From the IMG/VR virus record IMGVR_UViG_3300044260_000054, positions 1-40,329 of that record: 40,329 nucleotides of DNA, one strand, 5' to 3'. Both the position numbers and the translations under genes were made by a program. This document shows, in pieces, positions 13,354 through 32,300 of the stretch (positions are counted from its first letter, which is position 1; every line of letters starts with the position of its first letter). A model generated the notes under the pieces. That model was not told the origin of the DNA and ran no database searches. It worked only from the letters and a program-made list of their open reading frames with translations. Source of the stretch: a virus (Duplodnaviria; Caudoviricetes).

Positions 13354-14919
13354 TCAGCAGTCCGCGAAGAAGCAATAGGCGTCGACGGCCCCGGAGCCAA
13401 CGGTCGCCGTAGGTATCGGCGTTGCCGTAGGGGTGGCTGTGGCCGTGGGCGTTTCCGTGGGCGTTTCCGTGGGGGTGTCTGTGGGCGTGGGCGTGGGGGT
13501 ATCCGTGGGCGTGGGCGTGGGGGTGGCCGCGGGTGTCGGTGTCGGGATATCCTCGGTGCAGCCGATCATGTATGTCTCGCCGCCCGTGCCGGTCGTGATC
13601 GTTCCGCCGGCTATCATTTCTAAGCCGAGGCATCCGTGTGCGGGAACCGAGAAGGCATTGGTGGCCGTGCAGGAAACGTGCGTCCCAACCGTCAGCGTGC
13701 ACAGCGTCGTCTCGTCGTAGGAGAGATCGGCACATGATTGTGTGCTGGAAAGCCCCGCCGTGGAGGTTCGCGCCTTGACGGTCCAGGTGGGCGAGCTAGA
13801 CCCTGCACCGACTTGCTTGAGCGCGATCGCGGCGTTGCAGCCGCTCAGTGCATACTGACCGTTCACCCAAAACGTGTCTTGATTGGTGCTTGTCGCGTTT
13901 GTGGGGCCAGGGCCGAGGTAGTGCGTTGCGGTATACGTGCCGGTCGGACTGCCGGGGTTGCCGCCATAGAACCACGGGCCGCCCGTGCTGTAGGGCGCGG
14001 AACTATCGGCCGAGCAACTGAGATTCGTCCAGGGAACCGCGGCAGCCGCCGAGTTGTTCCGCGTCACCACACCACTGAAGCATGAGAATTGCGGGACAGT
14101 CACCGTATTGTCGATGGTAAAGGAGCACCTTTTCGCCGCGCTGCCAATGTTGCACTTGCTCGCACTGGTGGAATACGTGAAGTCGCCGCACGTTGTCGTG
14201 CCCGCGCCCGCGTCAAGCGTCGAGGCGGTTGTTCGGACTTCAAAATCACGGTTTCCCGTGCCGCCCGGAACCGTGTCGATGACCAACGAGCCAGCACACG
14301 CAGCGATTGCGTAGGGCGCAATAATGAAGGCGGCGGGGACAGTGGCGGCGGGCTGGGAGACGTTTTGCGCCGCGCCAATATATGCGACGTTCAGGATGCT
14401 TTGCTGGTAGTTCGCCATCGATGAGATGCCATCGACGGCGCTCGCCTCCCAGCAATCGAGCGACCAGTCGATACTCCCGGTGTTCGCGGCCGAATTTGCA
14501 GACGCGCCTTTCACTTGCAGGCACGACCCGGCACCAGGGCTAAAAGTCACGTCAGCCGAGCAGAATTTGTCACTCCCGGACACGGAACAGCCAGCGATGT
14601 CGCTCATGCTTCCCGCGTCGGTGATGCAGTCGTTGCCCGCTGCTGGAGCCGCGGTGTTGTAGCTGATGGAAATATCCCAACTCTTAGCGCTACCCGGCGC
14701 GGTGCCGAGGGCTACGGACAGATGGCAACCACCGAGCGCGCGGGACGTGGTGTAGAACGTCGGAGCGGTTTGCGTCGTCGCCACGGCGAAGCCCCCGTAC
14801 CACGTATTTGCGGAACTGATGCTGCCCCCGGAGCCGGCAAAATATTCGCCGCCATCAAGCGCGGCGTGGGCGGAACGTACCAGGAGAAGGCCAAGCAGGA
14901 TGAAAATTGCGCGCTTCAC
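13354..14919 (-). CDS. secreted Cys-rich protein with three tandem beta domains and a Pro/Thr tail (521 aa)
   Basis: GTGA-coupled start at 14919; signal peptide MKRAIFILLGLLLVRSAHA; PT repeats near the C-terminus. Confidence 0.75.
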   Translation of the reverse strand: MKRAIFILLGLLLVRSAHAALDGGEYFAGSGGSISSANTWYGGFAVATTQTAPTFYTTSRALGGCHLSVALGTAPGSAKSWDISISYNTAAPAAGNDCITDAGSMSDIAGCSVSGSDKFCSADVTFSPGAGSCLQVKGASANSAANTGSIDWSLDCWEASAVDGISSMANYQQSILNVAYIGAAQNVSQPAATVPAAFIIAPYAIAACAGSLVIDTVPGGTGNRDFEVRTTASTLDAGAGTTTCGDFTYSTSASKCNIGSAAKRCSFTIDNTVTVPQFSCFSGVVTRNNSAAAAVPWTNLSCSADSSAPYSTGGPWFYGGNPGSPTGTYTATHYLGPGPTNATSTNQDTFWVNGQYALSGCNAAIALKQVGAGSSSPTWTVKARTSTAGLSSTQSCADLSYDETTLCTLTVGTHVSCTATNAFSVPAHGCLGLEMIAGGTITTGTGGETYMIGCTEDIPTPTPAATPTPTPTDTPTPTPTDTPTETPTETPTATATPTATPIPTATVGSGAVDAYCFFADC

Positions 14920-15068
14920 AGCAACGCCTTTCGTGCGCAGTGGCACAGGTAGTCCCAACCGGCCCCGAGTACCGTCATCGGCACAGCGAGAATCACAGCG
15001 GCAGGAAATAGGACCACACCAAGAATGATCTTGCCGACCAAGGCGGCTCGGTTGATCTGGTCGCTCAT
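14916..15068 (-). CDS. small membrane protein (50 aa)
   Basis: ATGA-coupled; long hydrophobic stretch IILGVVLFPAAVILAVPMTVLGA. Confidence 0.6.
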   Translation of the reverse strand: MSDQINRAALVGKIILGVVLFPAAVILAVPMTVLGAGWDYLCHCARKALL

Positions 15069-15400
15069 GGTACCCCCCATAGCTCGATGAACAGAAAGGG
15101 CTCGCCGGCCAGCGGCGGCGTGCCCATGACGACGGTTTGCTGATTGCGGCGAAGATACCATTTGCCGGCCGCCGGCGGATCGGCTGCGTCATAGAGCACT
15201 AGGGCGCTGCCCTGATAGAGCAGCGCCCGCGGGACGCCGTTGACGTCGAGGGAAATTTTCACCGGGGCCATAAACTCTAGCGCAACGCCATCGGCGCCAT
15301 CGATCGTGAGATTGAACAGCTGGTAGTCGCGTCGGAGGAGGTAATCGCGCACGCCGTCAAGGGTTCGAAAGACCGGCGGCCCATACTGTTTCACGGCCAT
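15065..15400 (-). CDS. putative tail protein (post-nozzle position, 111 aa)
   Basis: Overlaps the nozzle stop; beta-rich C-terminus. Confidence 0.55.
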   Translation of the reverse strand: MAVKQYGPPVFRTLDGVRDYLLRRDYQLFNLTIDGADGVALEFMAPVKISLDVNGVPRALLYQGSALVLYDAADPPAAGKWYLRRNQQTVVMGTPPLAGEPFLFIELWGVP

Positions 15401-17529
15401 CGGCGCACCGTTCGCAGCTGCACATCACATTGGACGCGATGCAGCTCGAAATTCGGGCCATCGGTTGGGTTGGTGAACAGGAAATCAACCACGCGCCCGG
15501 AGTGCGCCAGGTCGGTGATTGTGGTGCGCGGCTCTTGAAACGCCGGCCCTGTCGGACGCACGGCACCGGCGAAGAACGGCACCGCGTTGGTGTTGTCCTC
15601 CTCGTATCGGATCACGCCGTTGAGCCGCTGCGCGCCGCGATATTGGGGCTTGAGATAGGCGACGCGGCCGAGCCGCAGCATGGGCGAGCGATCATCGAGC
15701 AGCTGGCTGCGCGTGCGAATGGTGACGGGAATCGGCTCGGGGCCGCCGTCGGTGTCATCCGTTGTGCCCGTGTCGAACTCGCGGATCCAGCCGTCGAGGC
15801 CGCCGGCGATGAGTTCGCCCTGGTCGGGAGAGCCGACCCACACGCACGCGGCGTTGAGCGGCATCGTCGGGACATGCGACCAGGCGAGGGTGAATCCGCC
15901 GCCGGCGGCCGGGATGAATTGTAACACGTAACCGTCAGCCACGTCCGGATCCAGCTTGAGCCAATACTGATTCCGGCGCGGGTGAAAGACGCCGATCGCG
16001 CTAGGGTACGGCGTCGGTTCGTTGGCAGTGCGCGGGGCAAACAGCGTCGCAATCGCCCCCGATAGGTCGGTCGGCGTCATGCTCTGCGCGTCGGTCAGGT
16101 ACAGGCCCCCGTGTCCGAGGTAGATCACACCCCATGGACATTCCTGCACCGTTTCCGGCGCCGTGCAGCCGACCGTCGAATAGAGATTGAGCTGGCCGCC
16201 GGCCAGGGGATCGCCGAGGAACGAAAACAGACACGTATCTTTCAGAATCACGAGTGGCGCAGACAGCGAGGCGAGCCCCACCAGCCCGGTAATCTTGCCC
16301 CCCTTCGGGTCATTGACGGAGAGCTGCACGTCGGCGAACCACGTTGTTTCATCGTTCACTTCCGAGCCGTAGACTGAAAAGCTCAGTTCCCCGGGCGTGG
16401 TCGCCCAGAGGCGAGACTTCCACAGCGTCAGGTACGGCCCCGTAGGAAGCGACACCTGGCTGGCCGTGCCCGATTGTTCCACGGCCACCAGACGGCGCGT
16501 GCTAGGCAGCGAGTAGTTATGTGAATAGCGCTGCATCGGGTTGGTGCCGTCGGCAATGAAGGTCGCCCCCTTCTCAGACCAGGCCGCGAAGTGTGGGCGG
16601 AACGTCGGCGCGGCCAGCGGCGGTGCCGGGAGATTATTGAGGTCGATGTTTGGCACTACGAGCTCGCCGGCGTCGTTGCTGGCAAAATACCGCAGTGCCA
16701 CAAATCCGCCGAGCGCGGCAACGGGGCCGACGGTGCCGACAATCTGACTCGGCCTGGTGGCGCCCTCAAAGTAGACCGTCACCTTGATCGCCTCGACGAA
16801 CACCTCGACTTGATAGCTGTTCCCCGGGCCCGCAAACGTGACGTACAGATAGACACCGAACGTCGGATCATTGAGCTCGGCCGGTGTCAGCCCGTCCCAT
16901 AGCGTGGTGGGAGAACCGAAGACGTCAGTAACCGAGCGGCGCACGACTAGCCCGTTTTCGTCGAGCTGCACCCAGTTGGCGGTGTTGGCCTCGACATGCG
17001 GGCCACTCTGGCCTTGATACGCGAGCTGCATCGAGGCGGTGATGGTCGGATAGGAGGTTGATCCTTCTCCGCCCTCAACGTGGTGCGTAAGATCGAACTG
17101 CAAGCCAGTGATCCGCGCGCCAGCAGGGATATGCCAAGCGGCCTCGGTCCACCGTAAGAAGTTGGTGCTTGTGTCCGTGGTATTCGGCGCAAATGTCGCG
17201 TGTGCGGTGAGATAGGGCTGGCCGGCCTCGGGAGTCCACGGCACCGGGCCGCCGCCCGCGATGTTTTCGAGGTTGGCAAAAAATGGCGTCGAGGTGCTCG
17301 CCACTTCCACCCGCGAGTAATGGCGGGCCAGGGCCACGACGCTATTTTCGAGTTGCGTGTAGCGCCGCGCCCGACCACGGCGGCCACGCACCGCACCGCT
17401 CGCCTGATATTCGACGTTCTCCGCCTCGAGCAGCGCATTCGCGGGCACGGCAAAGCCCGGCTGCGGATCGGCACTATTGGCGTCACCCGGTAACCAGAGG
17501 CCGCCGTTGAAGTTGTCGAGCGGTAACAC
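15391..17529 (-). CDS. tail nozzle / tube protein (P22 gp10 / T7 gp12-like)
   Basis: N-terminal NFNGGL...ENVEY...VRGRRG; beta-propeller-like motifs WKSRLW, ITGL, VILKD, VGCTAPETV, GVIYLG; follows the adaptor. Confidence 0.8.
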   Translation of the reverse strand: MLPLDNFNGGLWLPGDANSADPQPGFAVPANALLEAENVEYQASGAVRGRRGRARRYTQLENSVVALARHYSRVEVASTSTPFFANLENIAGGGPVPWTPEAGQPYLTAHATFAPNTTDTSTNFLRWTEAAWHIPAGARITGLQFDLTHHVEGGEGSTSYPTITASMQLAYQGQSGPHVEANTANWVQLDENGLVVRRSVTDVFGSPTTLWDGLTPAELNDPTFGVYLYVTFAGPGNSYQVEVFVEAIKVTVYFEGATRPSQIVGTVGPVAALGGFVALRYFASNDAGELVVPNIDLNNLPAPPLAAPTFRPHFAAWSEKGATFIADGTNPMQRYSHNYSLPSTRRLVAVEQSGTASQVSLPTGPYLTLWKSRLWATTPGELSFSVYGSEVNDETTWFADVQLSVNDPKGGKITGLVGLASLSAPLVILKDTCLFSFLGDPLAGGQLNLYSTVGCTAPETVQECPWGVIYLGHGGLYLTDAQSMTPTDLSGAIATLFAPRTANEPTPYPSAIGVFHPRRNQYWLKLDPDVADGYVLQFIPAAGGGFTLAWSHVPTMPLNAACVWVGSPDQGELIAGGLDGWIREFDTGTTDDTDGGPEPIPVTIRTRSQLLDDRSPMLRLGRVAYLKPQYRGAQRLNGVIRYEEDNTNAVPFFAGAVRPTGPAFQEPRTTITDLAHSGRVVDFLFTNPTDGPNFELHRVQCDVQLRTVRRWP

Positions 17530-17535
17530 GACCGA

Positions 17536-17763
17536 TCACGGCTTGTTGAGTTTCCCGAACGAGCGCACGGCCGGAATATGGTCGGCACCCTTGGTGAAAC
17601 CACGCAGCTTCGCGTTGCGAATCTTCACGCGCGGGATGCCCGGTAGGCCACGGGGGTTGTAGGTTGCCTTCATGCCGTGGCCGTCGCTGCCGCACGCGGC
17701 GGCAAATTCCGCGTGCGCGGCGCCCGGTTCGTCGTGGTATCTGCCCTTGTTTTTTGGTCGCAT
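17536..17763 (-). CDS. small basic protein (75 aa)
   Basis: GAGGG SD before ATG 17763 (MRPKNKG); Lys/Arg-rich. Confidence 0.55.
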   Translation of the reverse strand: MRPKNKGRYHDEPGAAHAEFAAACGSDGHGMKATYNPRGLPGIPRVKIRNAKLRGFTKGADHIPAVRSFGKLNKP

Positions 17764-17771
17764 AGCTTCCC

Positions 17772-18470
17772 TCACTCGTAGAATTTGTGGTGATGCGGCG
17801 CGCGTCGGTATTGGCGGTTTGGCAACACGCCACCCGTCACCCACCTTTTCCCCCACATGACACGCTTCGCGCGCTGGTAGAGCAGTTGCGTCGTTTGCCG
17901 GTCTTGTTGAAGGGTCTCAGAAAACGTTGCGCCCTTGGCCTGCAGGCCGAGCGCCACACACTCGATGTCCTCCTGGGCAATGTCCAGCACGTCATCATCG
18001 AGGCCGATACTGTGCCAGGGGGCGATAAAGGTGATTTCGCAGTCGACGCCGGCCGAGAGCGCATCCGCCGGCGGGTAGACTTGGAGGGTGCGGTTATTCG
18101 GGTACAGCCGCCAAAGGCGCCACTTCTCGCGCCAGAGCGTGCCATACTGCATCCGCACCCGGTCCCAACGATCGTCGTCGAGCCCCTGCTCCACGCGGCC
18201 AAACGGGATGCCCCAATCAGGCACAAAGAGCGACAGCACCGCCGCCGGATAGTGCGGGGTCAATTTTGTGATGCCGCGCGTGTCGTACTCGTAGCGGTCG
18301 GCTTCGATCGTGAAGCGGGTCAAGCGCCGCACCGCCGCAATGCACTCGTCGGCGGTGAGATCCGAGAGCACGAAGTCAAAGGCCGGCGCAAGGATGTCGT
18401 TTACGAACGCCTCGGAGGTGTCGCCGAGTTGGCGACCAGCGGCCAGAAGGATGTCACGTTTTGTTGCCAT
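17772..18470 (-). CDS. head-tail adaptor (P22 gp4 / T7 gp11-like)
   Basis: N-terminal helix MATKRDILLAAGRQLGD; YEY and LQVYPPAD motifs; upstream of the nozzle. Confidence 0.7.
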   Translation of the reverse strand: MATKRDILLAAGRQLGDTSEAFVNDILAPAFDFVLSDLTADECIAAVRRLTRFTIEADRYEYDTRGITKLTPHYPAAVLSLFVPDWGIPFGRVEQGLDDDRWDRVRMQYGTLWREKWRLWRLYPNNRTLQVYPPADALSAGVDCEITFIAPWHSIGLDDDVLDIAQEDIECVALGLQAKGATFSETLQQDRQTTQLLYQRAKRVMWGKRWVTGGVLPNRQYRRAPHHHKFYE

Positions 18471-18844
18471 TAGACGGCCTCGTGGCCCACGCCGCAGGCG
18501 AAGGCGCGAATATGCGCCGGCGTCGTGCCGACGTAGTTGAGTTCAACCGGCACCAGGGTGTCGAGACGCACATGACAGTCCCACAGGACAAAGACGCCGC
18601 CGGCTTCGACGGTGATCTCGCCGTTGATCTGGCGATAGACGCGCACGCCGATGGTTTGATCGCTCAGCAGCACGAGCCCCTGCATGACGCCGAGTTTCGT
18701 GATGGGGAGGTCAACCCAGCCGCTGGTCGCGGCGAGCTGGTAGTTGATGAGTTCGTAATCCTCGGCCTCGATCGGGTGCACGTAGGGCGAGGCGGGGAGA
18801 TGCCGAGAGCCGGAGCGCAGAACCGCGGACAAGAGAAAGCGCAT
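18470..18844 (-). CDS. small beta-rich virion protein, paralog A (124 aa)
   Basis: TGATG/TAATG coupling; start MRFLLSAVL at 18844. Confidence 0.65.
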   Translation of the reverse strand: MRFLLSAVLRSGSRHLPASPYVHPIEAEDYELINYQLAATSGWVDLPITKLGVMQGLVLLSDQTIGVRVYRQINGEITVEAGGVFVLWDCHVRLDTLVPVELNYVGTTPAHIRAFACGVGHEAV

Positions 18845-19191
18845 CAGTCGCCCCCTACCCAGCCGGTGATCCGCGTCTGAGCCTCCGCCTTGCACTCGCT
18901 GTCGGGCGTGTTGAGGGCGCCGTTGTAGAGGAGAAAGAGGCCCCCGGGCTCGATCGGAATGTTGCTGGTCGTTTGCGTACCGACCCGGAGCTTGACCGCG
19001 CCGGCGGATTGCACCACGAGAATGTGCGGATCCGCGACCTGTTCCACGGCCATAGGGGCATAGACCGCATCCCCCTCGCGGGCGAGCCGGAACCCTTGCA
19101 CCAGGGCAACGTCGAGGCTCTCGAGCCACGGGAACCAGTCGAGCGGTTCGTCGTCCATCTCGAGGCGGAGCGTGAGCTGTGTCGCTATCAT
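18844..19191 (-). CDS. small beta-rich virion protein, paralog B (115 aa)
   Basis: GGGGGA SD; start MIATQL at 19191; aligns by eye with paralog A. Confidence 0.65.
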   Translation of the reverse strand: MIATQLTLRLEMDDEPLDWFPWLESLDVALVQGFRLAREGDAVYAPMAVEQVADPHILVVQSAGAVKLRVGTQTTSNIPIEPGGLFLLYNGALNTPDSECKAEAQTRITGWVGGD

Positions 19192-19199
19192 GGTTCCCC

Positions 19200-21527
19200 C
19201 TACGGGCCGACGCACCCACCAAAGCGGCACGCATACTGACAGCGGTTGCCGCAGGTACCACAATTTGCACGGTTCGAGAGCGGATCCACGCAGCCGGTAG
19301 AGCAGAAGATTTGACCGGGTGGGCACGGTGAGGGCGTCAAGACGTCGACGCAGACGGTCAGGCCCGGCCCCGTATCCGAATCGGCCGAGTAAGGATCCCA
19401 CTCATTGCGGCCGCGCGGTTGGCCGCCGGAGATCCCGACGCGAAATTTAGTGAAGCCGCTCGTATTGATCGCGGCGGGATCGAGAGGGATGCGGAACACA
19501 TGATAGGGTGCCCAGGCGCCAGGATGCCCGGCTGGCATCTCAAACGCCGTCGAGGCGACAGCATCGCTATAGTCGGCCGCGGAGATTGGCCCGTCGGGCA
19601 ACACCTCGCCAACGAGGTTGCGGGAATCGTCGTTGTGCCATTCAGGGATGATGCCCTCCCAAGTGGCGGAATGCACATGGGCACCGGCGAGGACACTCGT
19701 GTCGTAGCGCCACACGGAAACGTCGGTCCAGAAACGGCCGAGATCGGCCACGTCCCAATAGCGGTTCTTCATCGTCTGGTTGACGTTGCCCTCGGTCCAC
19801 ACGCCGCTTTGCGTGGTCGGCGGGTAGGTGCCACCGTGGCGCCAGGCCACGCCGTCATCGCCGTTCGTGAGGCCGAAGTGGGTGCAGTTCACCGCCAGGC
19901 TAGGGGTGGGCGTCGGGATGCTGGTTTGCGTGATCGTCGGGGTCGGGGTCGCCGTCTCAGTCGCGGTCTCAGTCGCGGTCTCAGTCGCGGTGGGGGTTGG
20001 CGTTGGCGGCGATGTGAAGGTGGGCAGCGGCGTCCGCGTGGGCGTGAACCATACGCAGATGCCGAGGGGCGTCGGCGTGGGGGTAGGTGTCTCCGTCGCC
20101 GTGGCCGTGGGAATCGGCGTTAATGGTGTTTCAGTGGGCGTCGCCGATTCAGCCGGCGTGGGCGTTGGGGTGTCCGTGGGCGTTGGGGTGTCCGTGGGCG
20201 TCGCCGTTGCGCCCGTCGTCGGCGTCCACGTCGGCGCCGGCGTTGCTACGCCGCACCCTCCCGGCGCAGCCAGGGGCGCACCCGGGGGGGCCATTTCCCA
20301 ATTCACCCCGATCGAGCCCGTGTTCTGCCCGGGGGGGCTAATTGCGGTCATATAGACATACCCTTGTGGGATCGCGCGAGTCGCCACAAGGTCGGTGCAG
20401 CCCACGGTGCCCGCGGCCACAACACAGGAAGGCACATCGCAAAGGAGGCGCGAATCGTCCGCACCCACGCAGGTGGTAACAGTAATATCCTGCGTTGCCG
20501 GCCCGCTCAGGCGAACACGGAGATTCTGCGCGATCCCGTCGGCGTCATTGCAGTACGTCACCGTAGCGACGTCGTTCAATGCGCCCACGAGCGGATTCAG
20601 GAAGTGGCTGAAACTGTCAATCCATTGGGAGCCGCGGCCGGTCAGGATCTGGCCGGTGTTGCCAAACTCGATAACGTGGGTCGCGGGCAAAGGATGCAGC
20701 CCCCCGACTGCGTTTTCTCGAATATAAACTTGATCGCCTCCAGTGACGCTACAGTTCGAGGAACAGGTGACGGCATTTGAATAGAGCCCGCTCCCGGTGG
20801 CAATCGAGGTCGAGACAATGTCGCTCGCAGTCGTCACGTCATGAAGACTTGTCCCAATGGAGGTGCAAAAGCCGGCGCAGAGAGATTCATTATTGAGGGA
20901 GAGTGTTGAAGCTGCGGCGTCCCGCGGCATGACTATCGCCTCGTTCGAGGTAGTAGACCCACACTTTGGTCCTAAGAGCGAAACCGCTTCCGGGATGCAG
21001 AATTTATTGTTCCCGTTGACGTTGTTAGGTATCCCAAAATCAAGCACGGCATCGTGTGCGGATCCATCTTGCGCCAAGACCGTGAGGGTGACGTTGCATG
21101 TGTGGCTGCTAAGAGAGCTCGCGTTGAGAAGGACGTAGTCGCCTTGATTGAAATTTACGTAGTCGCCCGTTGTCGCATAGCGGTCAAGGCAACCGGGGTG
21201 CCCGGCACTGGAACAGGCCAGAGCTGAATTGACCCCGTTGACGGCGACAGTAAACGAGGCCGTGAGGGGCGCCTCGCATTTGACCGTGAGGTTTTGTAAG
21301 CGTCCCGCCGAGGGCATATAGAGGCCAAACACGCCACCATTTGCCCAGCTCGTCGCCGGCTGACTGCCTCCCGAAGCATCAAAATGCCAAGCCAAATGCG
21401 CCCGGCGAATGTCGGGCGTCGCGGTGCCCGCCGCAGTCGGCGTGCTGGTGGCAGTCGGCGTCGGCGTTTGTGCGGGCAGCCAGAGCGGCCACGCAACGAT
21501 GAGGGCGATAAGGAGCCGTTTCACCAT
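19200..21527 (-). CDS. secreted multidomain Cys-rich Pro/Thr-repeat protein (775 aa)
   Basis: Signal peptide MVKRLLIALIVAWPLWLPA; three repeated beta domains, long PT linker, DNRLRE-like domain, Stig1-like C-terminal CVD..NCGTCG..C. Confidence 0.8.
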   Translation of the reverse strand: MVKRLLIALIVAWPLWLPAQTPTPTATSTPTAAGTATPDIRRAHLAWHFDASGGSQPATSWANGGVFGLYMPSAGRLQNLTVKCEAPLTASFTVAVNGVNSALACSSAGHPGCLDRYATTGDYVNFNQGDYVLLNASSLSSHTCNVTLTVLAQDGSAHDAVLDFGIPNNVNGNNKFCIPEAVSLLGPKCGSTTSNEAIVMPRDAAASTLSLNNESLCAGFCTSIGTSLHDVTTASDIVSTSIATGSGLYSNAVTCSSNCSVTGGDQVYIRENAVGGLHPLPATHVIEFGNTGQILTGRGSQWIDSFSHFLNPLVGALNDVATVTYCNDADGIAQNLRVRLSGPATQDITVTTCVGADDSRLLCDVPSCVVAAGTVGCTDLVATRAIPQGYVYMTAISPPGQNTGSIGVNWEMAPPGAPLAAPGGCGVATPAPTWTPTTGATATPTDTPTPTDTPTPTPAESATPTETPLTPIPTATATETPTPTPTPLGICVWFTPTRTPLPTFTSPPTPTPTATETATETATETATPTPTITQTSIPTPTPSLAVNCTHFGLTNGDDGVAWRHGGTYPPTTQSGVWTEGNVNQTMKNRYWDVADLGRFWTDVSVWRYDTSVLAGAHVHSATWEGIIPEWHNDDSRNLVGEVLPDGPISAADYSDAVASTAFEMPAGHPGAWAPYHVFRIPLDPAAINTSGFTKFRVGISGGQPRGRNEWDPYSADSDTGPGLTVCVDVLTPSPCPPGQIFCSTGCVDPLSNRANCGTCGNRCQYACRFGGCVGP
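19954..19989. repeat. perfect 12-bp tandem repeat (GTCTCAGTCGCG)x3 encoding ATET units
   Basis: Read directly; a second 18-bp duplication lies at 20157-20192. Confidence 0.9.
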
Positions 21528-21531
21528 GGGG

Positions 21532-22791
21532 TCATCCCGGCGTCGGAGTCAGACAGATGCCGTTGCCGCCACAGTCGGCGTCGACGGTGCAGCGCACGAC
21601 TGGCGGTATAGTGGCCGTAGGCGTCGCCCCGGTTGGGGTTAGGCTTGGTGTTGCCGTCAGCGTCGGCGTCGATGAGGGCGTCACCGTCGAGGTCACGGTG
21701 CGGGTCGGCCCCGCGAGATATTGGGGAAAGTAGTCAGTGCCGGGCGTCGGCGGCGCCGTAGGAAACCCAAAGGGGGTTACGGTTGGCGTGTTCGTAATCG
21801 TGCGGGTTGGCGTGGCCGTTGCCGTCGATGAAGGGGTCCACGTTTGCGTGGGGGTGTAGGTGTTGCTCGGCGTCGCGGTTGACCCCGGGGTATTCGTGAT
21901 CGTCGGCGTCGGTGTGATTGTCGGCGTGGCCGTCGGGGTCCAGGTCGGCGGAAACGTCGGCGTGGCCGTCGGAGCAAACAGGTATTGCGTCACGTAGTCC
22001 GTCGCCGGCGTCGGGGCTGGTTCAACGCAGAGCTCCAACACCGGGCCCTCGGCGTTCGCGGTCGGCGTTGGATCATCGACAGACGAAAAGCCGAGGATGG
22101 TCTGATCCAAGTCGGCGAGTGGTTGCGTGCCGATGCCCCACACGCGAAAGGCAGTGTAGCCTGCGGCGTTAATGCCCGTCACACTTGTGAGCGGCAGCGT
22201 GGTGCTCCCCCAGGGGATGACGCCAAACGACACGTTGAAGGCCGGCGAGCCCGTGGGCCGTGCGGCGAAGTCGCCGCAGGAATACGTGGACACGCTGCCG
22301 TCGTAATACGTGCCGGTGAGCGCGCCGGTGGTGTCGGGAAAAATCATGAGCTTGAAGTTGGGCGCAATGCGGAGATCGCCCTGCGCGACGCGCGTGCCGC
22401 CGGGGATACCGGAGGTGTCGAACCGCATCGCCGCGACCGCCCGATAATACGTGCCACTGAGAAGCTCATCGGCGGCGAATAGATCCGTGTTGTCGAAGTC
22501 GATAAACTGACACACCGGCGCATCGTAGACCGGCGAATAGCCCCAGAGGGTGACGTCATCATTCGTCGCCGCGATCGGGATGGAGAGCGGCGTCTGGCCG
22601 GCGGCGCAGGCGACCGTCGGCGTTGCGGTCGGGGTCGGTGTCGAGGTCGGTGTCTCGGTGGGCGTGTCGGTCGGCGTGGCCGTCTGACCAAACGCGGGGA
22701 GTCCGCCCAGGGCGCCCAGGGCGAGGCTCAGCACAAACAGGGCGAACCGGCGGCGCGCTACATTCGGGAGGAACCGCGGCGGGTGTCGCAT
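21532..22791 (-). CDS. secreted Pro/Thr-repeat protein with DNRLRE-like domain (419 aa)
   Basis: Signal peptide ...[24 protein letters not shown] (RRxF, possibly Tat); MRFDTSGIP; C-terminal [13 protein letters not shown]. Confidence 0.75.
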
Positions 22792-22816
22792 GGGGGGGGC
22801 TCACGCATCGGCGCGG

Positions 22817-23434
22817 TCAATTCGGATAGGAAAGGTTGATGCTCTGAATGACCATTTTCCCGGTCGGCTGTGTCCCGCCCGTGAGACAATCCACGCGCTT
22901 GACGAGCACCTTCGCCAGTTGCCCGTTGCACACGCTGGCGGCGCACGCGCTGCCGGTTGCGGAATTGGTGACCACAAGGCCGGTCGTCACCGCGGGGATC
23001 GGCACATATTGCCCGGCCGTCGCGGCGCTGATCGCGGTGCCGCCCACGGACGCGAGGCCCGAGGTCATCACGTTGGTCGCGGCGTCGGCCTCAAAGACAG
23101 TAATGGACGCCTGATAACACGCGCGTTTGCCCGTGGTGGTTTCATCGAGCGGCCACTGATAGACCGCCATCGAGGGGGCCACGCCCGCGGCGTTGTAGTC
23201 GTCTGGCAACGTGACCGTGAAATAGGTGGTATCGTTGCTCCCATACGCGCACCCCGGCCCCTTGTAGGGCATCCCGTCGAGGGCGCGCGTGCCTTGTTCG
23301 GTGGAGCAGGGATTGACCGCGCCAGCTTCGGCTTGCCCGCCCACAAGGTAAATGTGCGAGGTGCCGCCCCAGGCCGGCGTTGTGAGCACCACCCCGAACG
23401 CCACTGCCACGAGTCCACGCATGAGCTGTTTCAT
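22817..23434 (-). CDS. secreted beta-rich Cys-containing protein (about 205 aa)
   Basis: Signal peptide MKQLMRGLVAVAFGVVLTTPAWG; alternative start at 23443. Confidence 0.7.
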   Translation of the reverse strand: MKQLMRGLVAVAFGVVLTTPAWGGTSHIYLVGGQAEAGAVNPCSTEQGTRALDGMPYKGPGCAYGSNDTTYFTVTLPDDYNAAGVAPSMAVYQWPLDETTTGKRACYQASITVFEADAATNVMTSGLASVGGTAISAATAGQYVPIPAVTTGLVVTNSATGSACAASVCNGQLAKVLVKRVDCLTGGTQPTGKMVIQSINLSYPN

Positions 23435-23439
23435 CGTCC

Positions 23440-23835
23440 TCATCCTTTCGCTGGTGGTCCGGTGATAAATTCCCACTCCACGTCGCCGTTGTCGGTCATG
23501 CGGAGGTAGCTCCAGACCGCTTCGGACAGATCAATACCGGCGCCATTGGTGCGTCGGCCCTGTTCGTCGGTGCCGCTTTCTGCCGCGGGCCGCGCGCCAT
23601 GCATCACATACTGGTCGTCATGGGTGTTCCACGGTCCCAGGTCGCCGACCGGGGCCATGCAGCAGCGTCCGTTCGCGCAGTTGCTAACGAAGACGATGCG
23701 GCGGAGGGCCCAGCGTGAGGGCAGCGCCACGAACCAATTTGCCAGCTGGTAGGGGTGCTTGAGGTCCAGCACCCGAAACCCGATCGCCGTGAGGTTGCCG
23801 ATTTGCCCCTCGCGGGTCGCTTTCACGCGGATCAT
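23440..23835 (-). CDS. endolysin, RlpA-like double-psi beta-barrel lytic transglycosylase
   Basis: FVALPS, APVGDLGPWN, AGIDLSEAVW and VEWEF motifs; ATGA-coupled start at 23835. Confidence 0.7.
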   Translation of the reverse strand: MIRVKATREGQIGNLTAIGFRVLDLKHPYQLANWFVALPSRWALRRIVFVSNCANGRCCMAPVGDLGPWNTHDDQYVMHGARPAAESGTDEQGRRTNGAGIDLSEAVWSYLRMTDNGDVEWEFITGPPAKG

Positions 23836-24251
23836 CGGGCACTCCTCGATTTCTGGGGTGTGCGTTGCACTTGCAGCACTTCGGCCTGGAGCATGTGCAG
23901 CGTCTCGATAATTTGCTCGTGCTGTCCAAGCACACGATCGCTCAGGCGCTCGATGGCCGCGACACGCCGCTGGCAGTCGTCGAGAGATTGCTCGACACGT
24001 ATTTTGTCGTGGCTCCATGGACTTTCCTTGAGGGCCTCGCGCACCATGGCCTGCACCAGAAACTTGTCAGGCACATCCTCAAGCCGGTGCGCTAAGACCC
24101 CATAGGCGCCCCCCACGGCAAAGGCGGCAGCCACCAGGCCGATAAGCACGTAGTACCAGACCGTCGGGCGGCCCTTGCTCTCGAGCGCATCCAGCACCCG
24201 TTGCAGGCTGGGTTCCTCGCCATGGTCGTCGTGATCGCTGGACGCATCCAC
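23832..24251 (-). CDS. single-TM plus coiled-coil protein (possible holin-like)
   Basis: TM segment VWYYVLIGLVAAAFAVGGAYGVL followed by a coiled coil; directly upstream of the endolysin. Confidence 0.55.
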   Translation of the reverse strand: MDASSDHDDHGEEPSLQRVLDALESKGRPTVWYYVLIGLVAAAFAVGGAYGVLAHRLEDVPDKFLVQAMVREALKESPWSHDKIRVEQSLDDCQRRVAAIERLSDRVLGQHEQIIETLHMLQAEVLQVQRTPQKSRSAR

Positions 24252-24263
24252 ATGGCCCCCGGG

Positions 24264-25016
24264 TTACGTTGGCGATGGCGACGGCGGCGAAGTGGGGGTC
24301 AGGGTCGGGGTTGGGGTTAAGGTTGGCGTCGGCGTCTTGGTCGGCGTCTTGGTCGGCGTCGGCGTCAAGGTTGGCGTCGGCGTCCAGGTCGGTGTCGGCG
24401 TGCGGGTCGGCGTGAACGTCGGCGTATTGCGAGGGGTCTTGGTCGGCACCGGCGTGGAGCGGTCGGGGAGATCGCCTTGCTCGACCGCCCACACGGGGAT
24501 CGGCGTGGCCGCCCCCTTGCACTGCCAGGGTTGCTCGGCCGTGGACCGGCCGTGGTAGCCAGCGGAGAACCCAGCATGGAGCGGCGACGCGGCCGTCACG
24601 GGCGCCCAATTCGAGTTTGCATCTGCCGTGGGACCGCACATGAGGGTCCCTGTGGTGTCGGTTGTCCGCAGCTCGAGGAGCCAACGGCCAGAATTACTGC
24701 CGACCGTCGAGGGTGTCGGGTTGACGTTATATGTGGTAATGCGGCTGCCGACCTCGGCCCGGGCGACGCTGGCGGACAGGCAGAAGCCCAGCACCAGGAG
24801 TTTTTTCAGGTGCATGAAGTCGGAGAGCTGTCGATCGGACATTCGCGGATCTCCCTTAGCGGGGCGCCCGGCGCGCTGGCGGGTTCTGACCGCAGCCATA
24901 AAGCGCCGCTGGCGTTCGCTGACGGCGGGATTGAAACTCAACTCGCGGGCGTGTTCTCGTCCGCATCCCTCGGCAAACGCTGCGTGCCCGGCCGTTGACT
25001 CGTCGCTCGATCGCAC
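24264..25016 (-). CDS. fusion ORF: DUF3008-like basic module, internal signal peptide, small domain, Pro/Thr tail
   Basis: PAVSERQRRFM...MSDRQLSDF runs in frame into MHLKKLLVLGFCLSASVARA (possible internal ATG 24815) and a PT tail. Confidence 0.6.
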   Translation of the reverse strand: MRSSDESTAGHAAFAEGCGREHARELSFNPAVSERQRRFMAAVRTRQRAGRPAKGDPRMSDRQLSDFMHLKKLLVLGFCLSASVARAEVGSRITTYNVNPTPSTVGSNSGRWLLELRTTDTTGTLMCGPTADANSNWAPVTAASPLHAGFSAGYHGRSTAEQPWQCKGAATPIPVWAVEQGDLPDRSTPVPTKTPRNTPTFTPTRTPTPTWTPTPTLTPTPTKTPTKTPTPTLTPTPTLTPTSPPSPSPT

Positions 25017-25026
25017 CGCGTCACCG

Positions 25027-25695: not shown

Positions 25696-25699
25696 CGCT

Positions 25700-26218
25700 T
25701 TAGCGGTTCCGTCGTGCGGCGAGGATGATGTTGGCACCGCCAGCCACTTGCAGGGCGGCCGGGATAGATAGGCCCGCTTGCGTCATGAAGTTGCCGGAAC
25801 CAGTGAGCGAGGCGCCCGTGGAGCTCGATGCCACCAGGCCGGTAATGGCCGCGCCGTCTTGGTCGACGTGCTTCGGGTCACTATTGGTCGTCTCGTCGCC
25901 GCTTTCGCTCGTGTCCACACCGCTCACCCAGCGCTCGCCGGCGCTGTCGAGCACAACGATGTCGCCGCCGGCGTAAGCGGTGATGCCCGACGTGACGCGG
26001 GTCACGACGCCCGTCGAGCCAGTGGTCAGCAGACTCAGCGCGGCCGCCCACTGCGAAAGGTTGGTGTTGTTGAACCACCAGTATTGGTTCGGGTTGGTGC
26101 CGCCATGGTCGACGAACAGGAGCGCGAAGTCGGGCACGAAGCCGAACATGACTTTGACCACACCGGCACTCGACGTCTTGCTGGTGAATTGCGCGATGGC
26201 CAGATCAGAAATTTCCAT
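25700..26218 (-). CDS. virion structural / decoration protein (172 aa)
   Basis: AAGGGAG SD; directly after the capsid gene; GFVPD motif. Confidence 0.65.
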   Translation of the reverse strand: MEISDLAIAQFTSKTSSAGVVKVMFGFVPDFALLFVDHGGTNPNQYWWFNNTNLSQWAAALSLLTTGSTGVVTRVTSGITAYAGGDIVVLDSAGERWVSGVDTSESGDETTNSDPKHVDQDGAAITGLVASSSTGASLTGSGNFMTQAGLSIPAALQVAGGANIILAARRNR

Positions 26219-26248
26219 GTGTGTCTCCCTTTGTGGGTGCCTCTGCCG

Positions 26249-27283
26249 TTACGGGGCTAACAGCCCGGCGGTGACTTCGGCCCGCACCATAAACGTCTCG
26301 TTGAGGCGCTTGCGGGCGCCGGTGTGCTTCCAGCCAGAGGTGCCGATTTGGTTGAGAGGATCGGAGGGGCCGCCGCTGCCAATGGGCTTGATGATGTTTT
26401 CCAAGCTCATGCCCTCAAGCGGCACCGCCGCGACGGCTTCCTCGCCAAACGCGAGAATGAAATACACGTCGGCGTTGCCACTGGTGAGGTACACGTCTCC
26501 GGCGGCCGTCCCGCCTCCGCCGCGGAGCACCTTCGCGCCGCCCAGGGCGTCTGTCGTGCCGCCCGAGGATGCCAGAAACCGCAACTCGCGGAACGCGCCG
26601 ACTTCGGCCTCCATGACGGCGGAGCTGCCGGAGTAGTGCGATACGGGCACCCACTCGTCGAGCGTCTCGAGGGTTGCCACCACGTCGGGGTGCGTGATCG
26701 CCCAAAAGGCCGCGCGGATCGGGTGCGTGTCGACCTTCACGCTGGCTGTGACAATCTTGGTGAAGCGGCTCGCGTTGGCGTCGAACAGCGCGCGGATCAT
26801 CCGCACGAGGAGGTTCGCGTCGACCTTCTGCGTGGTCGTGGTCAGGTTCGCCCGACCGGCCACACCGCCGCCGTAAAACACGTTGGTGCCGGCACACTGC
26901 TCCTCGCGCATCAAGACGTCGATGGTTTGCGCCGCCTGCTCGCCGAGCACCTTGTTGGCGTCGTTCAAGAGGGGGTGGTCGATCGTCGCCTTGATGAGAT
27001 CCGCGATTGTGATGTAATCGCCCCATTGCTGGATCTTCACTGAAATATCGGTGTGGCTGACCTTCTGCCCGGACGGCGGTGTGCCCTCGACCAGCGGCGT
27101 CGTTGCCAGAGAGAGACTCTCAACACGCCGGAACACCATGGTGTTGCCGGAGCGCTGTTTGAGCGGCCGGCGCTCCGCAACCCGTGCGTGGACCAGCAAG
27201 GGGAGCGCGCGGGAGAGTAATGCCCGGTCAAAGTAGGTTTGAACGACTGGCGGGATAACGCCACTGTCAGTGAGTACGCCCAT
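26249..27283 (-). CDS. major capsid protein, N4-gp56 family
   Basis: GAGGAG SD; PLVEGTPP, QWGDY, LGEQAAQTID, AITHPD, EVGAF, SDPLNQIGTSGWK. Confidence 0.92.
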   Translation of the reverse strand: MGVLTDSGVIPPVVQTYFDRALLSRALPLLVHARVAERRPLKQRSGNTMVFRRVESLSLATTPLVEGTPPSGQKVSHTDISVKIQQWGDYITIADLIKATIDHPLLNDANKVLGEQAAQTIDVLMREEQCAGTNVFYGGGVAGRANLTTTTQKVDANLLVRMIRALFDANASRFTKIVTASVKVDTHPIRAAFWAITHPDVVATLETLDEWVPVSHYSGSSAVMEAEVGAFRELRFLASSGGTTDALGGAKVLRGGGGTAAGDVYLTSGNADVYFILAFGEEAVAAVPLEGMSLENIIKPIGSGGPSDPLNQIGTSGWKHTGARKRLNETFMVRAEVTAGLLAP

Positions 27284-27294
27284 AGTCTAACTCC

Positions 27295-28173
27295 TCATGC
27301 GACGCCTTGCTGGCGTCGGAGATTTTCAAATTCCGCATCGGTCATGTTCCAAATGGCTTGACTGTCCACCTTGCGGCGCTCGGCGCCCGGGCCGCGCTCA
27401 CGGAGTGCTTTGTCGGCGCCGCGGCGGGCCGCCTCGGTGATCTTGTCGGTGGTTTCCTTTGCGCCGTCGACGCGCGCATTGAGCGCATCCATGATGGACC
27501 GCAGGGCCCGCACTTCATGGCCCTTGTGTTGGGTGAAGGTGCGCAGGATCACAGCGGCGGCCATCTCCGCCAGGGCGGGATTGTCGGGGGCCAGTGCATG
27601 GACGTGGGACCGCAACGCCGGATCCCGACTGAAAGCGGGCTCGAGGTAGGTGGAGCGCATTTGATCGTAGCTACGATCGGGCGCCCCCATGGCGTCGGCG
27701 GAAAACTTGCCGCGCGCCTCGGCCTCGGAGTTGGCAATGCGGGTCTGCCGGGCAATCTGGTTCTGAATATCCGAGAGGCCGCGCTTGTTCTGCCAGTCGA
27801 TATAGGCCAGGAGCTCGTCGGCCGTGGCCTCGCCCGACTGGAGCCGCTCGAGCGACACGGGCGGTTTTGTGGCGGCCTCGGTGAGCGCGCGGGTGCGTTC
27901 CTCGATCAGCGGCCCGAATTGCGATCGCAACTCGTTGACGGTGCGCTCGAGCGTGAAGTTGCGCTCGCGGAGCTCGGCGACCGGATCCGCCGCCGGTGCG
28001 GTTGACGCCGGCGGTGCCGGGGAAGGCGCCGGCGCCGCCGGTTGATCGGCGTCAACCGTTGGGGATGGTTGTTCGGCCGCCTCCGCAGTCACATCGAGGT
28101 CATAGTGCACCTCGGGTTCTGCTTGCTCGCTGGGAGCGTGCTCGACGCCCTGGTCGCTCGTGTCTGTGTCCAC
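27295..28173 (-). CDS. scaffolding protein
   Basis: Acidic/Pro-rich N-terminus, coiled coils, C-terminal IWNMTDAEF; between portal and capsid; GTG start at 28173 preferred but uncertain. Confidence 0.75.
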   Translation of the reverse strand: MDTDTSDQGVEHAPSEQAEPEVHYDLDVTAEAAEQPSPTVDADQPAAPAPSPAPPASTAPAADPVAELRERNFTLERTVNELRSQFGPLIEERTRALTEAATKPPVSLERLQSGEATADELLAYIDWQNKRGLSDIQNQIARQTRIANSEAEARGKFSADAMGAPDRSYDQMRSTYLEPAFSRDPALRSHVHALAPDNPALAEMAAAVILRTFTQHKGHEVRALRSIMDALNARVDGAKETTDKITEAARRGADKALRERGPGAERRKVDSQAIWNMTDAEFENLRRQQGVA

Positions 28174-28234
28174 GACCTGACAGGTGTAGGGAACGCAGAC
28201 ACCCGTCAACGCTGTCTGTCAGGGTTGGCGTGCC

Positions 28235-30199
28235 TTAGCGCACGCGCGGAGCGGGGCGGGGTGGCGGGGCTGCGCCTTGTTCGGCGGCGAGCTTTTGCTG
28301 CGCGTAGGCGAGAATCTTCATCGCGTCGTCTTCGCCGATAATGCCGGCGTCGCGCGCTTTGTCGACGGCCACCTCGGGCGGGATATAGCCCGGGAACTCC
28401 CGCATGATCTCGCGCACCGAATCCCACATCGCCATCTGGACCGTTGTCTCCCAGGGCTTGGAGGCGTCAACGGCGACGTCATACTCGGCGAGCATCGCGT
28501 CTTGCAGGAGGCGCACCACATCGGCGCCCGGATCCTGTAAGATCGGCCCGACGGTGCCCGGTTGCGCCGGTTGGCCCGCCACCGGTGGCGGCGCCGCGGC
28601 GGCCGCTTGCTGTTCGCGGGCAGCCAGGGTGCCGAGAATCCGCAGCGCCTTCGCCACGGGCATGTATTGCTGAATCGCGCGTACCATAAACTTGATCGCG
28701 GGTTCTTTGTCGGTGAGAAAACTCTCGAGGAGCGGCTCTTGCGTGGTCATGCCGCCGCGCTGGCGTGCTTCGATCGCCTTCCCACTGACCGTTTTTTGCG
28801 TGGTGTTGCCGAGCAGCTCGCGGTGGATCTGCGACACGTCTTCGACGTCGCGGTCGGCTTGCTGTTCGAGCCAGACGAGCGTTTGCGGAAGCTCGGGCGG
28901 AGGGATCCGTTGCGGCGGCGTGTTCTCGTAGGGAATCTCCGCCACTTCGCCGGCGCCGAACTTGCGAATGTCCTCGCTCTTGGCCCCGTCCGCGCGCTTA
29001 TTGAAAAATCCCCCCAAGGGCATTTTTTGCACGATCTCCACGATGGTCGAGCGCCGCCGGTTTTTCTCCCGCTGCGGATCTTTCATCGGGTGTACGACCC
29101 CGAACGGGTTGCGCCAGAAATAGTAGCCCACTGTGGGCCAGATCGGGAACTCTGGCGCATCAAACGGGCTCGGCTCGTCCTCGAGGAGCAACGAATTGAG
29201 CACGTAGGCGCGGCGCACCATGCTGACCGGACGCTTGAAGAATTGAAAGTCACCGGCGGCGTGCGGCATCGCCTTGAGCCGGGCGCGCAGGGCCTTCACT
29301 TTGTCCGGATCGCCCGACACGTCGCCGGTCACTTGGTTGCGCACGACCGTGACGTTGAGCCGGCGCCGATACCAGCATTCCAGGAGCCGGATCCGTTGCG
29401 TGTCCGGATCCCAAAAGAGGCGCTCGGCCGACCAGCTGTCGCCGGCGCCCTCGCCCGTGCCGGCGTCGGAGCCGAAGCGCGAGGAATTTTCCGACAGCCA
29501 CTCGCCGAACTGCGAGGCGATTTGTTCGTGAAACTCGGGGAACTGATCTTGCGCGGCCTGGCGGGTCATCCACATGGCGTGGATCACATACTCAGCGGCG
29601 TCCCAACCGAGATCAAACCAATTCGGATCACCGAAGATTGAGAGGGGGTGCGGCCGCTCCCAGGCCGGCAACCCGTCCGGGTCGTGCGTGTAGTCGAGCA
29701 CCACCTTGCGGTAGCCGAGGCCGGTGATGATTTTGTCGGCGAAAATGGTGTCATCCAGCTGGTTCTCACGGCTGGCCCTGGCGATGTACTTCAAGAGCGC
29801 GGTCATCAGCTGCGCGCCCTTCACGGAATCGCCCCCCGTCGCCGGGAGGAGCGTTACGTCGGTGCGTTTCTGGCGCTGCACGCCCAGGAGAAACAGCACG
29901 GGGCCAAGAATTTTGTTGATCGTCAGGCACGGGCGGCCGCCGAGCTCGTCGAGATCCTCCGCGCGCCATTGCTGGCCGCTGACGAACTCGTAGGACTCAA
30001 TGGCTTGCTGGCGCCAGACGTCGGTTTGCCGCGCGGAATCCGAAAACCAGGTCGTGATCTGGTCGGCGAACTTCTTGTCATCATCGCGCCGCTCAAGGCC
30101 GTCTTGGTCTTGCGGCGTGCTGCGTTCGGTCAGGCCGAAATCGCCGCCGGCCGCTTGTTGCGGCTGATAGCCGACGCGCCTGGTTGCCAGTTCACCCAC
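28235..30199 (-). CDS. portal protein (P22 gp1-like)
   Basis: FVSGQQW, RPCLTINKI, ITGLGY, MKDPQREKN, SGKAIEARQ motifs. Confidence 0.92.
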   Translation of the reverse strand: MGELATRRVGYQPQQAAGGDFGLTERSTPQDQDGLERRDDDKKFADQITTWFSDSARQTDVWRQQAIESYEFVSGQQWRAEDLDELGGRPCLTINKILGPVLFLLGVQRQKRTDVTLLPATGGDSVKGAQLMTALLKYIARASRENQLDDTIFADKIITGLGYRKVVLDYTHDPDGLPAWERPHPLSIFGDPNWFDLGWDAAEYVIHAMWMTRQAAQDQFPEFHEQIASQFGEWLSENSSRFGSDAGTGEGAGDSWSAERLFWDPDTQRIRLLECWYRRRLNVTVVRNQVTGDVSGDPDKVKALRARLKAMPHAAGDFQFFKRPVSMVRRAYVLNSLLLEDEPSPFDAPEFPIWPTVGYYFWRNPFGVVHPMKDPQREKNRRRSTIVEIVQKMPLGGFFNKRADGAKSEDIRKFGAGEVAEIPYENTPPQRIPPPELPQTLVWLEQQADRDVEDVSQIHRELLGNTTQKTVSGKAIEARQRGGMTTQEPLLESFLTDKEPAIKFMVRAIQQYMPVAKALRILGTLAAREQQAAAAAPPPVAGQPAQPGTVGPILQDPGADVVRLLQDAMLAEYDVAVDASKPWETTVQMAMWDSVREIMREFPGYIPPEVAVDKARDAGIIGEDDAMKILAYAQQKLAAEQGAAPPPRPAPRVR

Positions 30200-30392
30200 G
30201 CTCTCGGGTTATCTGACGCGCGGTCGGCGCGCAACGCTGTCTGCGTCGGCGCTCCCGGCTGGCGGGGCAGGTATTGGCGAAGATCGCCCGCACGCAGCCC
30301 TCCGGTAAGAGGGGCGGCCCGGCCCGGCGCTCGAGCTCGGCGAGCAAGGGCGGGAGCAGCCACTCGGCGAGGCGCTGTGCGTACCGGCGCAT
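30192..30392 (-). CDS. hypothetical protein (66 aa)
   Basis: Abuts the upstream stop and overlaps the portal start. Confidence 0.5.
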   Translation of the reverse strand: MRRYAQRLAEWLLPPLLAELERRAGPPLLPEGCVRAIFANTCPASRERRRRQRCAPTARQITRERG

Positions 30393-30848
30393 TTACCATT
30401 TCCAGTCGTGTACGTGCGGCGGCCGGTGCTTGGTGCGCGTCGGGCTCGGCGTGCTGGTCGCGGTGGGCGTCGGGGTCGCGGTCAGCGTGGGGGTTGGTGT
30501 GATGCAGACCTGCGCATTGCTTGGGTCCGAACAATAGCCGTCTATGGGACACGCGAGGAGACAGAACGCCCCGATCCCGACGCCGGAGAGTGCCGTCTCG
30601 TAGTAGTCGGGCGGTGTCGGCGTGGGGTTGGGCGTGACGTGCGCGCGGTCGATCGTCGCCGGCGGCGTCCCGTTGGCGACGATTACGAGCCAATGGTGTA
30701 CCGGCGTCGGTTCCTCTTGGCTGAAAATGACGAACGAATGCGCCGCATCGCAGACTTTCGGCGTCGGCACGCCACACGTCGGGGGCGCTGTCGGCGCCTG
30801 GGCCTGGGCGAGGCCGGCGACCAGGAGGAGGGCGACCGTCAGGCGCAT
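30393..30848 (-). CDS. secreted Cys-containing Pro/Thr-repeat protein (151 aa)
   Basis: TAATG-coupled to terL; signal peptide MRLTVALLLVAGLAQA; PT tail. Confidence 0.7.
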   Translation of the reverse strand: MRLTVALLLVAGLAQAQAPTAPPTCGVPTPKVCDAAHSFVIFSQEEPTPVHHWLVIVANGTPPATIDRAHVTPNPTPTPPDYYETALSGVGIGAFCLLACPIDGYCSDPSNAQVCITPTPTLTATPTPTATSTPSPTRTKHRPPHVHDWKW

Positions 30849-32278: not shown

Positions 32279-32300
32279 CGTCCCGCACGCCTCGGTCTGC

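Follow-up and report, generated by a model that had tools for sequence, protein, structure and literature searches.

Why should a tailed phage place, among the genes for its particle, six genes whose products have predicted export leaders, when the virions of tailed phages are generally assumed to be finished inside the cytoplasm? This question is raised by IMG/VR virus record IMGVR_UViG_3300044260_000054 (Duplodnaviria; Caudoviricetes), the whole of which (40,329 bases, here called the window) was analyzed. The six open reading frames (ORFs), here called A to F (Table 1), were pointed out in a first-pass annotation of the same DNA, which proposed that their products are exported, mature outside the cytoplasm and join the virion at lysis. 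The pattern is real, is clade-wide, and is without explanation from known families. The six ORFs probably encode appendages that are exported, acquire disulfide bonds and attach to the particle at lysis, a reading which we hold with rather more confidence than doubt.

All six ORFs exist at the stop codons first claimed for them, on the minus strand and in the same orientation as the genes for the large terminase (terL), the portal and the major capsid protein, and together they span about 6.8 kb (6780 nucleotides (nt) with the ORF limits as first drawn). Leaders were called by a heuristic in which the best 11-residue Kyte-Doolittle window within the first ~40 residues had to reach at least 2.0, in combination with a net positive N-region and a small-residue cleavage site. 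By this heuristic, all six ORFs have a leader (hydrophobicity 2.26–3.31) with the basic N-region, the hydrophobic core and the small residues at −3 and −1 that are expected for Sec export and cleavage by signal peptidase I; the absence of signal peptides, named beforehand as an outcome that would tell against the proposal, did not occur. Only two of the 24 other window ORFs examined reach 2.0 (33846–34310 and 4259–4600), both outside the virion module, and none of 44 control ORFs passes (the virion modules of L002, L004, L011 and Bacillus phage Palmer, which are free of such genes). Behind the leader, the mature N-termini consist of Pro/Thr sequence or a head domain rather than the leaderless attachment segment of podovirus fibres, and no C-terminal membrane anchor was seen in a hydrophobicity scan of ORFs A–F. 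Predicted mature A, D and E start with Gln (three of the six), as do several proteins in relatives, and pyroglutamate capping of these N-termini is possible.

The six proteins are also set apart by their cysteines: Cys occurs in all six, making up 68 of 2122 mature residues (3.2%) vs 16 of 5010 (0.32%) in 12 leaderless proteins of the virion module. Pro/Thr linkers occur, as had been claimed, in five of the proteins and not in C, TPT/PTP triplets numbering 11, 20, 0, 25, 31 and 17 in A to F, respectively. Judged from the sequences, Cys pairs that accompany the leader in B, in a domain shared by D and E, and in F (3 × 6) are likely to be a signature of oxidative folding. Two details of the first-pass annotation stood in part. 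For ORF B, the stop was correct and the start was not, as 25016 is likelier than 24815: the basic stretch of 67 aa by which the frame extends further upstream is 44–51% identical in L001, P0002 and P0004 (a relative and two protein homologues), is a separate 64-aa ORF in L034 (11075–11269), and is missing from the B of L016. The start of B is therefore probably at 25016, which would make its leader internal. As for translational coupling, stop and start overlap for A (with terL) and for F (with a 50-aa membrane ORF), whereas the other four ORFs lie only 4–25 nt from a neighbour. L002 has a small basic ORF at the corresponding place, unrelated to the 67-aa peptide of B (window 24816–25016).

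Evidence that these genes belong to the virion block comes from relatives. Scans with the capsid protein and with the 172-aa protein that follows it returned 10 relatives (designated by L numbers), which group with the window as one clade (support 91/96) whose inner forks are open in part. The stretch between the gene for a 236-aa protein and the adaptor gene is covered at least partly by seven of them, the records of L017, L018 and L036 ending earlier. In six of the seven (L001, L016, L032, L033, L034 and L035; capsid identity 44–80%), this stretch holds leader-bearing genes, here called the cassette, with products that range across cassettes from 151 to 1247 aa. In L001 the slot is occupied by B and C together with a D/E-like protein of 1197 aa. 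The seventh, L002, has no leader-bearing gene there, only the small basic ORF, and its post-nozzle gene encodes a 995-aa leaderless fibre-like protein with Fn3 and CBM domains; in the capsid tree L002 groups with the cassette-bearing L033 (95/96). In five of the six cassette phages in which the post-nozzle slot is visible, it holds a stub of 111 (window), 118 (L001), 117, 135 and 135 aa. The stub of the window is 46% identical to that of L001, and the stub of L032 corresponds to one Fn3 unit of the L002 fibre (37% over 115 aa, E 4e-14); the stubs of the window and of L037 gave no match to the L002 fibre. The gap between terL and portal, i.e., the slot of A, contains two different ORFs with leaders in L032, and likewise two in L034.

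Comparison of the relatives therefore shows that slots and leaders are conserved, whereas the cargo turns over. Leaders and in-register Cys are likewise conserved, and the lack of conservation that had been named as unfavourable was not seen. The claim that the ORFs sit where fibres or spikes usually lie also held, as in podoviruses free of the cassette those slots are taken by fibres or spikes that lack leaders, e.g. a leaderless sugar-binding tail protein (gp10) annotated in the capsid-to-adaptor region of Bacillus phage Palmer. The claim that a normal tail fibre is missing holds for long fibres; it does not hold fully, because the nozzle-like protein has an inserted domain of ~230 aa and small leaderless proteins are present (the 115/124-aa pair, the 111-aa stub and the 172-aa protein). 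Scans of viral contigs with B and with the portal returned the record of L001 alone, and no contig was returned when the nozzle or distant B homologues served as query. One cassette protein of L033 (15382–16623) has a leader followed by G8 and CEMIP beta-helix domains, and is possibly a polysaccharide-degrading spike.

Searches of Pfam, PHROG and NCBIfam gave no match above cut-off for any of ORFs A–F (for A, no family match), and word-index searches returned only C and F of the window itself (the F search scored 7994 candidates). More distant comparisons were informative. A profile search over 1.84 billion proteins gave 30 homologues of B, all of which have a hydrophobic leader directly preceding the domain and at least two Cys, and 25 of which have a Pro/Thr tail. 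Seven distant homologues (P0009, P0020, P0021, P0023, P0024, P0025 and P0029) have, in frame before the leader, a long N-terminal extension that contains hydrophobic segments and by eye resembles a holin; L033 11473–12027 is laid out alike. B was modelled as a single jelly roll (predicted local distance difference test (pLDDT) 81), with a viral spike protein, PM2 P1, as its top solved chain (Z 8.2, root-mean-square deviation (rmsd) 2.3, 81 residues aligned). Its best viral fold matches are uncharacterised Caudovirales proteins of 83–100 aa (template-modelling (TM) score 0.6–0.7), with tectivirus proteins too; Foldseek against the PDB gave no match for B at E ≤ 0.001. C is predicted, from its model, to have a phage spike-head fold (TM 0.79 and Atlas feature score 0.93 against Uroviricota clusters, namely predicted models of tailed-phage proteins of 212, 405 and 422 aa). 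Since MAFFT could not register the repeats of E on those of F, only F repeats were folded: one was modelled as a TNF/C1q-like jelly roll (pLDDT 69; Z 8.6, rmsd 3.0, 115 residues aligned), and its viral fold matches include tail-fibre, minor-tail and collagen-tip proteins. The three repeats in a single chain may thus form a pseudo-trimer that mimics a trimeric fibre head. The fold comparison proposed in the first-pass annotation accordingly gave predicted phage spike or fibre-tip folds, the jelly-roll or TNF-like head of podovirus fibres and spikes being found in the models built for B, for C and for a single repeat of F. A supposed paralogy of B with the 115- and 124-aa proteins as jelly rolls found no support, as hhalign shows no similarity.

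A domain of ~190 aa is common to D and the C-terminal part of E, with four copies in the 1197-aa protein of L001 and one in the L001 protein of the F slot. The name CBM96-like is only a weak lead: the D and E domains gave no match to CBM96 (PF24517) at E ≤ 1, and one homologous L001 domain scored 14.2 bits against a gathering cut-off of 26 (E 0.039). A leaderless L011 protein of 963 aa also contains a match to the D domain (E 5e-4). Cys is present on the first and last strands in six of the seven leader-bearing copies, and there is none in the leaderless L011 copy. No match was found when the D domain and the N-terminal region of E were compared with GenBank phages by tblastn. Sharing between leader-bearing and leaderless proteins is also seen for the inserted domain of the nozzle, which is missing from two relatives: the L001 insert matches that of the window and also the head of a leader-bearing L032 protein (30% over 114 aa, E 6e-10), so that one domain occurs in two settings, as part of a core virion protein and downstream of a leader. 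The virion block of L011 also includes a protein with a HINT domain (12401–13828).

Within the Pro/Thr linkers of four phages there recurs a hydrophobic motif around an invariant Gln, with two copies in D, five in L001, 12 + 1 in L032 and 9 + 1 in L034. The support for this motif is its recurrence in four phages; a shuffle test overstates its significance, because the pattern was derived from the observed copies. The motif might serve in docking, in cross-linking or in processing. Complex prediction for the D motif peptide with the 172-aa protein (3 copies) and with the 115/124-aa pair gave no answer (score 0.00), the controls not being folded.

Taken together, leaders, Cys registers, folds and slots lend partial support to the idea of export followed by joining the virion. 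On this reading, the six genes would be read together with the late operon; the proteins would cross the inner membrane by Sec, with cleavage of their leaders, and would form disulfides in the periplasm. Their Pro/Thr linkers may be glycosylated on Thr. The proteins would stay in the periplasm until lysis brings them together with the particles, becoming the host-binding and decoration parts of the particle. CBM96-like and TNF-like heads would bind sugars from flexible Pro/Thr stalks, and docking might proceed via the small jelly roll, via Gln-centred or similar short motifs, or via leaderless stubs. A wider reading, to which we give slightly less than an even chance, is that this podovirus clade gave host recognition over to the secretion, disulfide and glycosylation machinery of its host, thereby acquiring a second, extracytoplasmic stage of assembly. 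In the same reading, and held just as tentatively, the fibre was cut to a stub, trimeric heads became single-chain, disulfide-stapled triple repeats, and Pro/Thr tethers attach via the Gln motif.

Several observations weigh against particle appendages. The window phage and its cassette-bearing relatives are known from sequence alone, with no cultured member, and the only cassette-free genome within the clade, L002, is a 12-kb fragment. L035 combines a cassette with a leaderless post-nozzle protein of 356 aa; L001 lacks a homologue of A and has no leader gene in its terL–portal gap; the L001 protein in the slot of F has domains that differ from those of F; and the 115/124-aa pair, conserved in L001, was not found in L002 or L032–L036. 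The nozzle insert and the small leaderless proteins could bind receptors without any export. Jelly rolls are common, Z scores of 8–8.6 being near background for the fold library used, and XepA, an exported protein of PBSX, scores equally (Z 8.5). The CBM96 call goes back to the single E 0.039 match, and ORF E ends in a Cys motif of bacterial type. Finally, because an integrase is encoded in the window, accessory genes expressed in the lysogen are possible.

Some of these points suit a different role, close to the alternative named in the first-pass annotation (remodelling of the infected cell's surface). Here the exported, lectin-like proteins would never become part of the particle but would remain on the infected or lysogenic cell, or be shed; with folds borrowed from virions, they would hide receptors, prevent superinfection, serve as decoys or assist lysis. 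The integrase, the Cys tail of E and the presence of XepA, an exported jelly-roll protein of a prophage, among the fold matches all speak for such an envelope role, as do the mosaic cargo with its wide range of sizes and the lysis genes that lie inside the cassette of the window, L032, L034 and L035. However, in L001 the lysis genes lie elsewhere and B and C are retained; the slots stay fixed within the virion gene block across the whole range of capsid identity; the cassette is exchanged against a long leaderless fibre; and an anchor at the C-terminus is lacking in the hydrophobicity scan. With respect to the marks of morons, the picture is mixed: the content is mosaic but the slot is conserved, the GC content at third codon positions of the six ORFs (0.72–0.84) is like that of core genes (0.75–0.84), and promoter- and terminator-like sites in the region are no commoner than chance, in a weak scan. 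An envelope role is therefore judged unlikely, although it deserves to be taken seriously.

A role in membrane-linked maturation, with some leaders acting as uncleaved anchors and particles tethered to the inner membrane or wrapped by vesicles, would make sense of the conserved basic, cytoplasmic peptide before the internal hydrophobic segment of B, of the long, often hydrophobic extensions in several distant B homologues, and of the small lipoprotein-like genes in the cassettes of L001 and L034. It is improbable, given that all six leaders end in cleavage-type sites with small residues, that the basic peptide is separable or absent in L034 and L016, and that the holin-like and lysin-like genes indicate ordinary lysis. 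Lowest in standing is the notion that the leaders do not function in export and that hydrophobic N-termini serve docking or oligomerisation of cytoplasmic proteins: the leader calls come from a heuristic and not from SignalP, but leader character is kept despite sequence divergence in all 30 B homologues, none of the 44 control ORFs passes the heuristic, and Cys pairs co-occur with it, so that this can be regarded as very improbable.

Exported appendages would have partial precedents. The pIII protein of M13 is a receptor-binding virion protein that is exported by Sec, acquires disulfides in the periplasm and has flexible linkers; it has a C-terminal membrane anchor and joins the particle during non-lytic extrusion. 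The window, by contrast, represents a lytic-type podovirus with an HK97 fold, and no such anchor was seen. Lom and Bor of lambda and Llp of T5 are exported accessory proteins of phages. Sortase substrates and outer-membrane proteins are among the gene products of huge phages, as described in bioRxiv 10.64898/2026.10.24.761521. All of these are phage products sent to the host envelope, but they are lipoproteins, barrels or wall-anchored proteins, whereas ORFs A–F have predicted soluble, virion-type folds and structural slots. The head spike of RcGTA, the parts of which are not known to have leaders, offers a way to picture how B and the Pro/Thr proteins might work together. In that spike, the jelly-roll protein Rcc01079 forms a base on the capsid, and a short hydrophobic peptide docks the Rcc01080 fibre, which is flexible and binds polysaccharide, showing that these two elements are enough to attach such a fibre to a capsid (PMC7296036). 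Where an RcGTA-type spike has a jelly-roll pentamer on a capsid penton, a jelly roll is predicted for B from a single-chain model, and RcGTA is absent from the fold matches listed for B. The capsid spike gp52 of Pa223 is described as a homotrimer with a TNF-fold knob and an N-terminal attachment arm (bioRxiv 10.1101/2025.06.11.659172). Pa223 gp52 and Palmer gp10 are like F in their position in the virion block and their TNF-like head domains; F, unlike gp52 and the leaderless gp10, has three repeats per chain behind a leader.

The closest case among cultured phages is Cellulophaga phage phi18:3 (KC821620), for which GenBank annotates, in the stretch examined, 12 proteins on the basis of tandem mass spectrometry (MS/MS); 3 of these carry classical leaders. 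The three, gp085–gp087, are adjacent in a tailed phage and are annotated as structural from MS/MS; they differ from ORFs A–F in having no sequence similarity to them, only 0–3 Cys each and a different host group. By analogy, phi18:3 suggests that leader-bearing proteins can accompany tailed-phage particles, but they could be co-purified, which also counts against appendages. No paper describing the proposed route was found in full-text literature (most subscription journals and supplements being outside coverage), thus the novelty lies in the combination of known folds with a known export route, not found in print.

If particle appendages are indeed exported, infectivity would depend on host export, oxidation and perhaps glycosylation; receptor-binding parts could not jam assembly or bind before release; and pipelines that discard signal-peptide genes as morons would miss the host-range genes of such phages. 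The clade offers a natural pair with and without the cassette (L033 vs L002), phi18:3 is a possible bench model, and the Gln motif is a short, testable repeat.

The remaining features are placed in Table 1. The names of the adaptor, nozzle and ejection-like genes come from position and from homologues in relatives; the adaptor and nozzle have no match in Pfam, PHROG or PDB sequences, and no PDB sequence relative was found for the 111-aa stub, the 172-aa protein or the nozzle.

Table 1. Positions of the six leader-bearing ORFs, their neighbours and the Gln-centred motif (window positions unless a relative is named).
Feature	Position	Strand	Remarks
Virion block, podovirus-type	32356 to about 5949	minus	terL, portal, scaffold, capsid, then adaptor-, nozzle- and ejection-like genes
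Large terminase, terL	30848–32356	minus	PF04466; adjoins ORF A
ORF A	30393–30848	minus	151 aa; 16-aa leader, small domain with 6 Cys, Pro/Thr tail; terL–portal gap
Portal, P22-type	28235–30199	minus	PF16510; other flank of ORF A
Major capsid protein	26249–27283	minus	phrog_1357
172-aa protein after capsid	25700–26218	minus	Conserved follower, leaderless; cement-like by position only
ORF B	24264–25016	minus	Probably 250 aa; basic 67-aa peptide, internal leader (24756–24815), single jelly roll with Cys pair, Pro/Thr tail
Holin-like ORF	23832–24251	minus	Inserted between ORFs B and C
RlpA-like lysin	23440–23835	minus	Weak match; inserted between ORFs B and C
ORF C	22817–23434	minus	205 aa; leader and one 6-Cys domain; without Pro/Thr linker
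ORF D	21532–22791	minus	419 aa; leader; single domain, weakly called as CBM96-like; two Gln-centred motifs within the Pro/Thr linkers; Cys-rich tail
ORF E	19200–21527	minus	775 aa; leader; N-terminal region rich in Cys and weakly repetitive; then Pro/Thr linker, CBM96-like domain and a Cys tail resembling STIG1/MXAN_6577 (below cut-off)
Pair, 115 + 124 aa	18470–19191	minus	Leaderless; before adaptor; candidate docking parts
Head–tail adaptor-like protein	17772–18470	minus	By position and homologues in relatives
Nozzle-like protein	15391–17529	minus	712 aa; inserted domain of ~230 aa at about 16590–17292
Stub, 111 aa	15065–15400	minus	Leaderless; post-nozzle fibre slot; candidate docking part
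ORF F	13354–14919	minus	521 aa; leader, three tandem ~145-aa repeats (predicted TNF/C1q-like jelly rolls, each with 6 in-register Cys), then Pro/Thr linker and short Cys tail; lies in the post-nozzle slot
Gln motif, window	about 21976–21996; 21712–21732		In ORF D
Gln motif, L001	13942–17535
Gln motif, L032	13364–15796
Gln motif, L034	13388–17131

A lipoprotein-like gene and the RlpA-like lysin (weak match) suggest a diderm host; Binatia is a guess prompted by proteins with Pro/Thr linkers. No tRNA genes were found in the window. The lipoprotein-like ORF, helical and located upstream of the terminase genes (33846–34310; L001 3988–4392), is possibly a spanin or an exclusion protein. Directly after the large ejection-like gene lies a PurD-like ATP-grasp ligase (4597–5952; TIGR00877, E 1e-23, below cut-off), not seen at the equivalent place in L013. 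Before terL there is a 101-aa leaderless, beta-rich ORF (32301–32606), Ig-like by eye and without a match in Pfam or PHROG. Within a replication-initiator-like ORF (36571–37311) there are three direct repeats of 33 nt (37028–37126), possibly the iterons of an origin.

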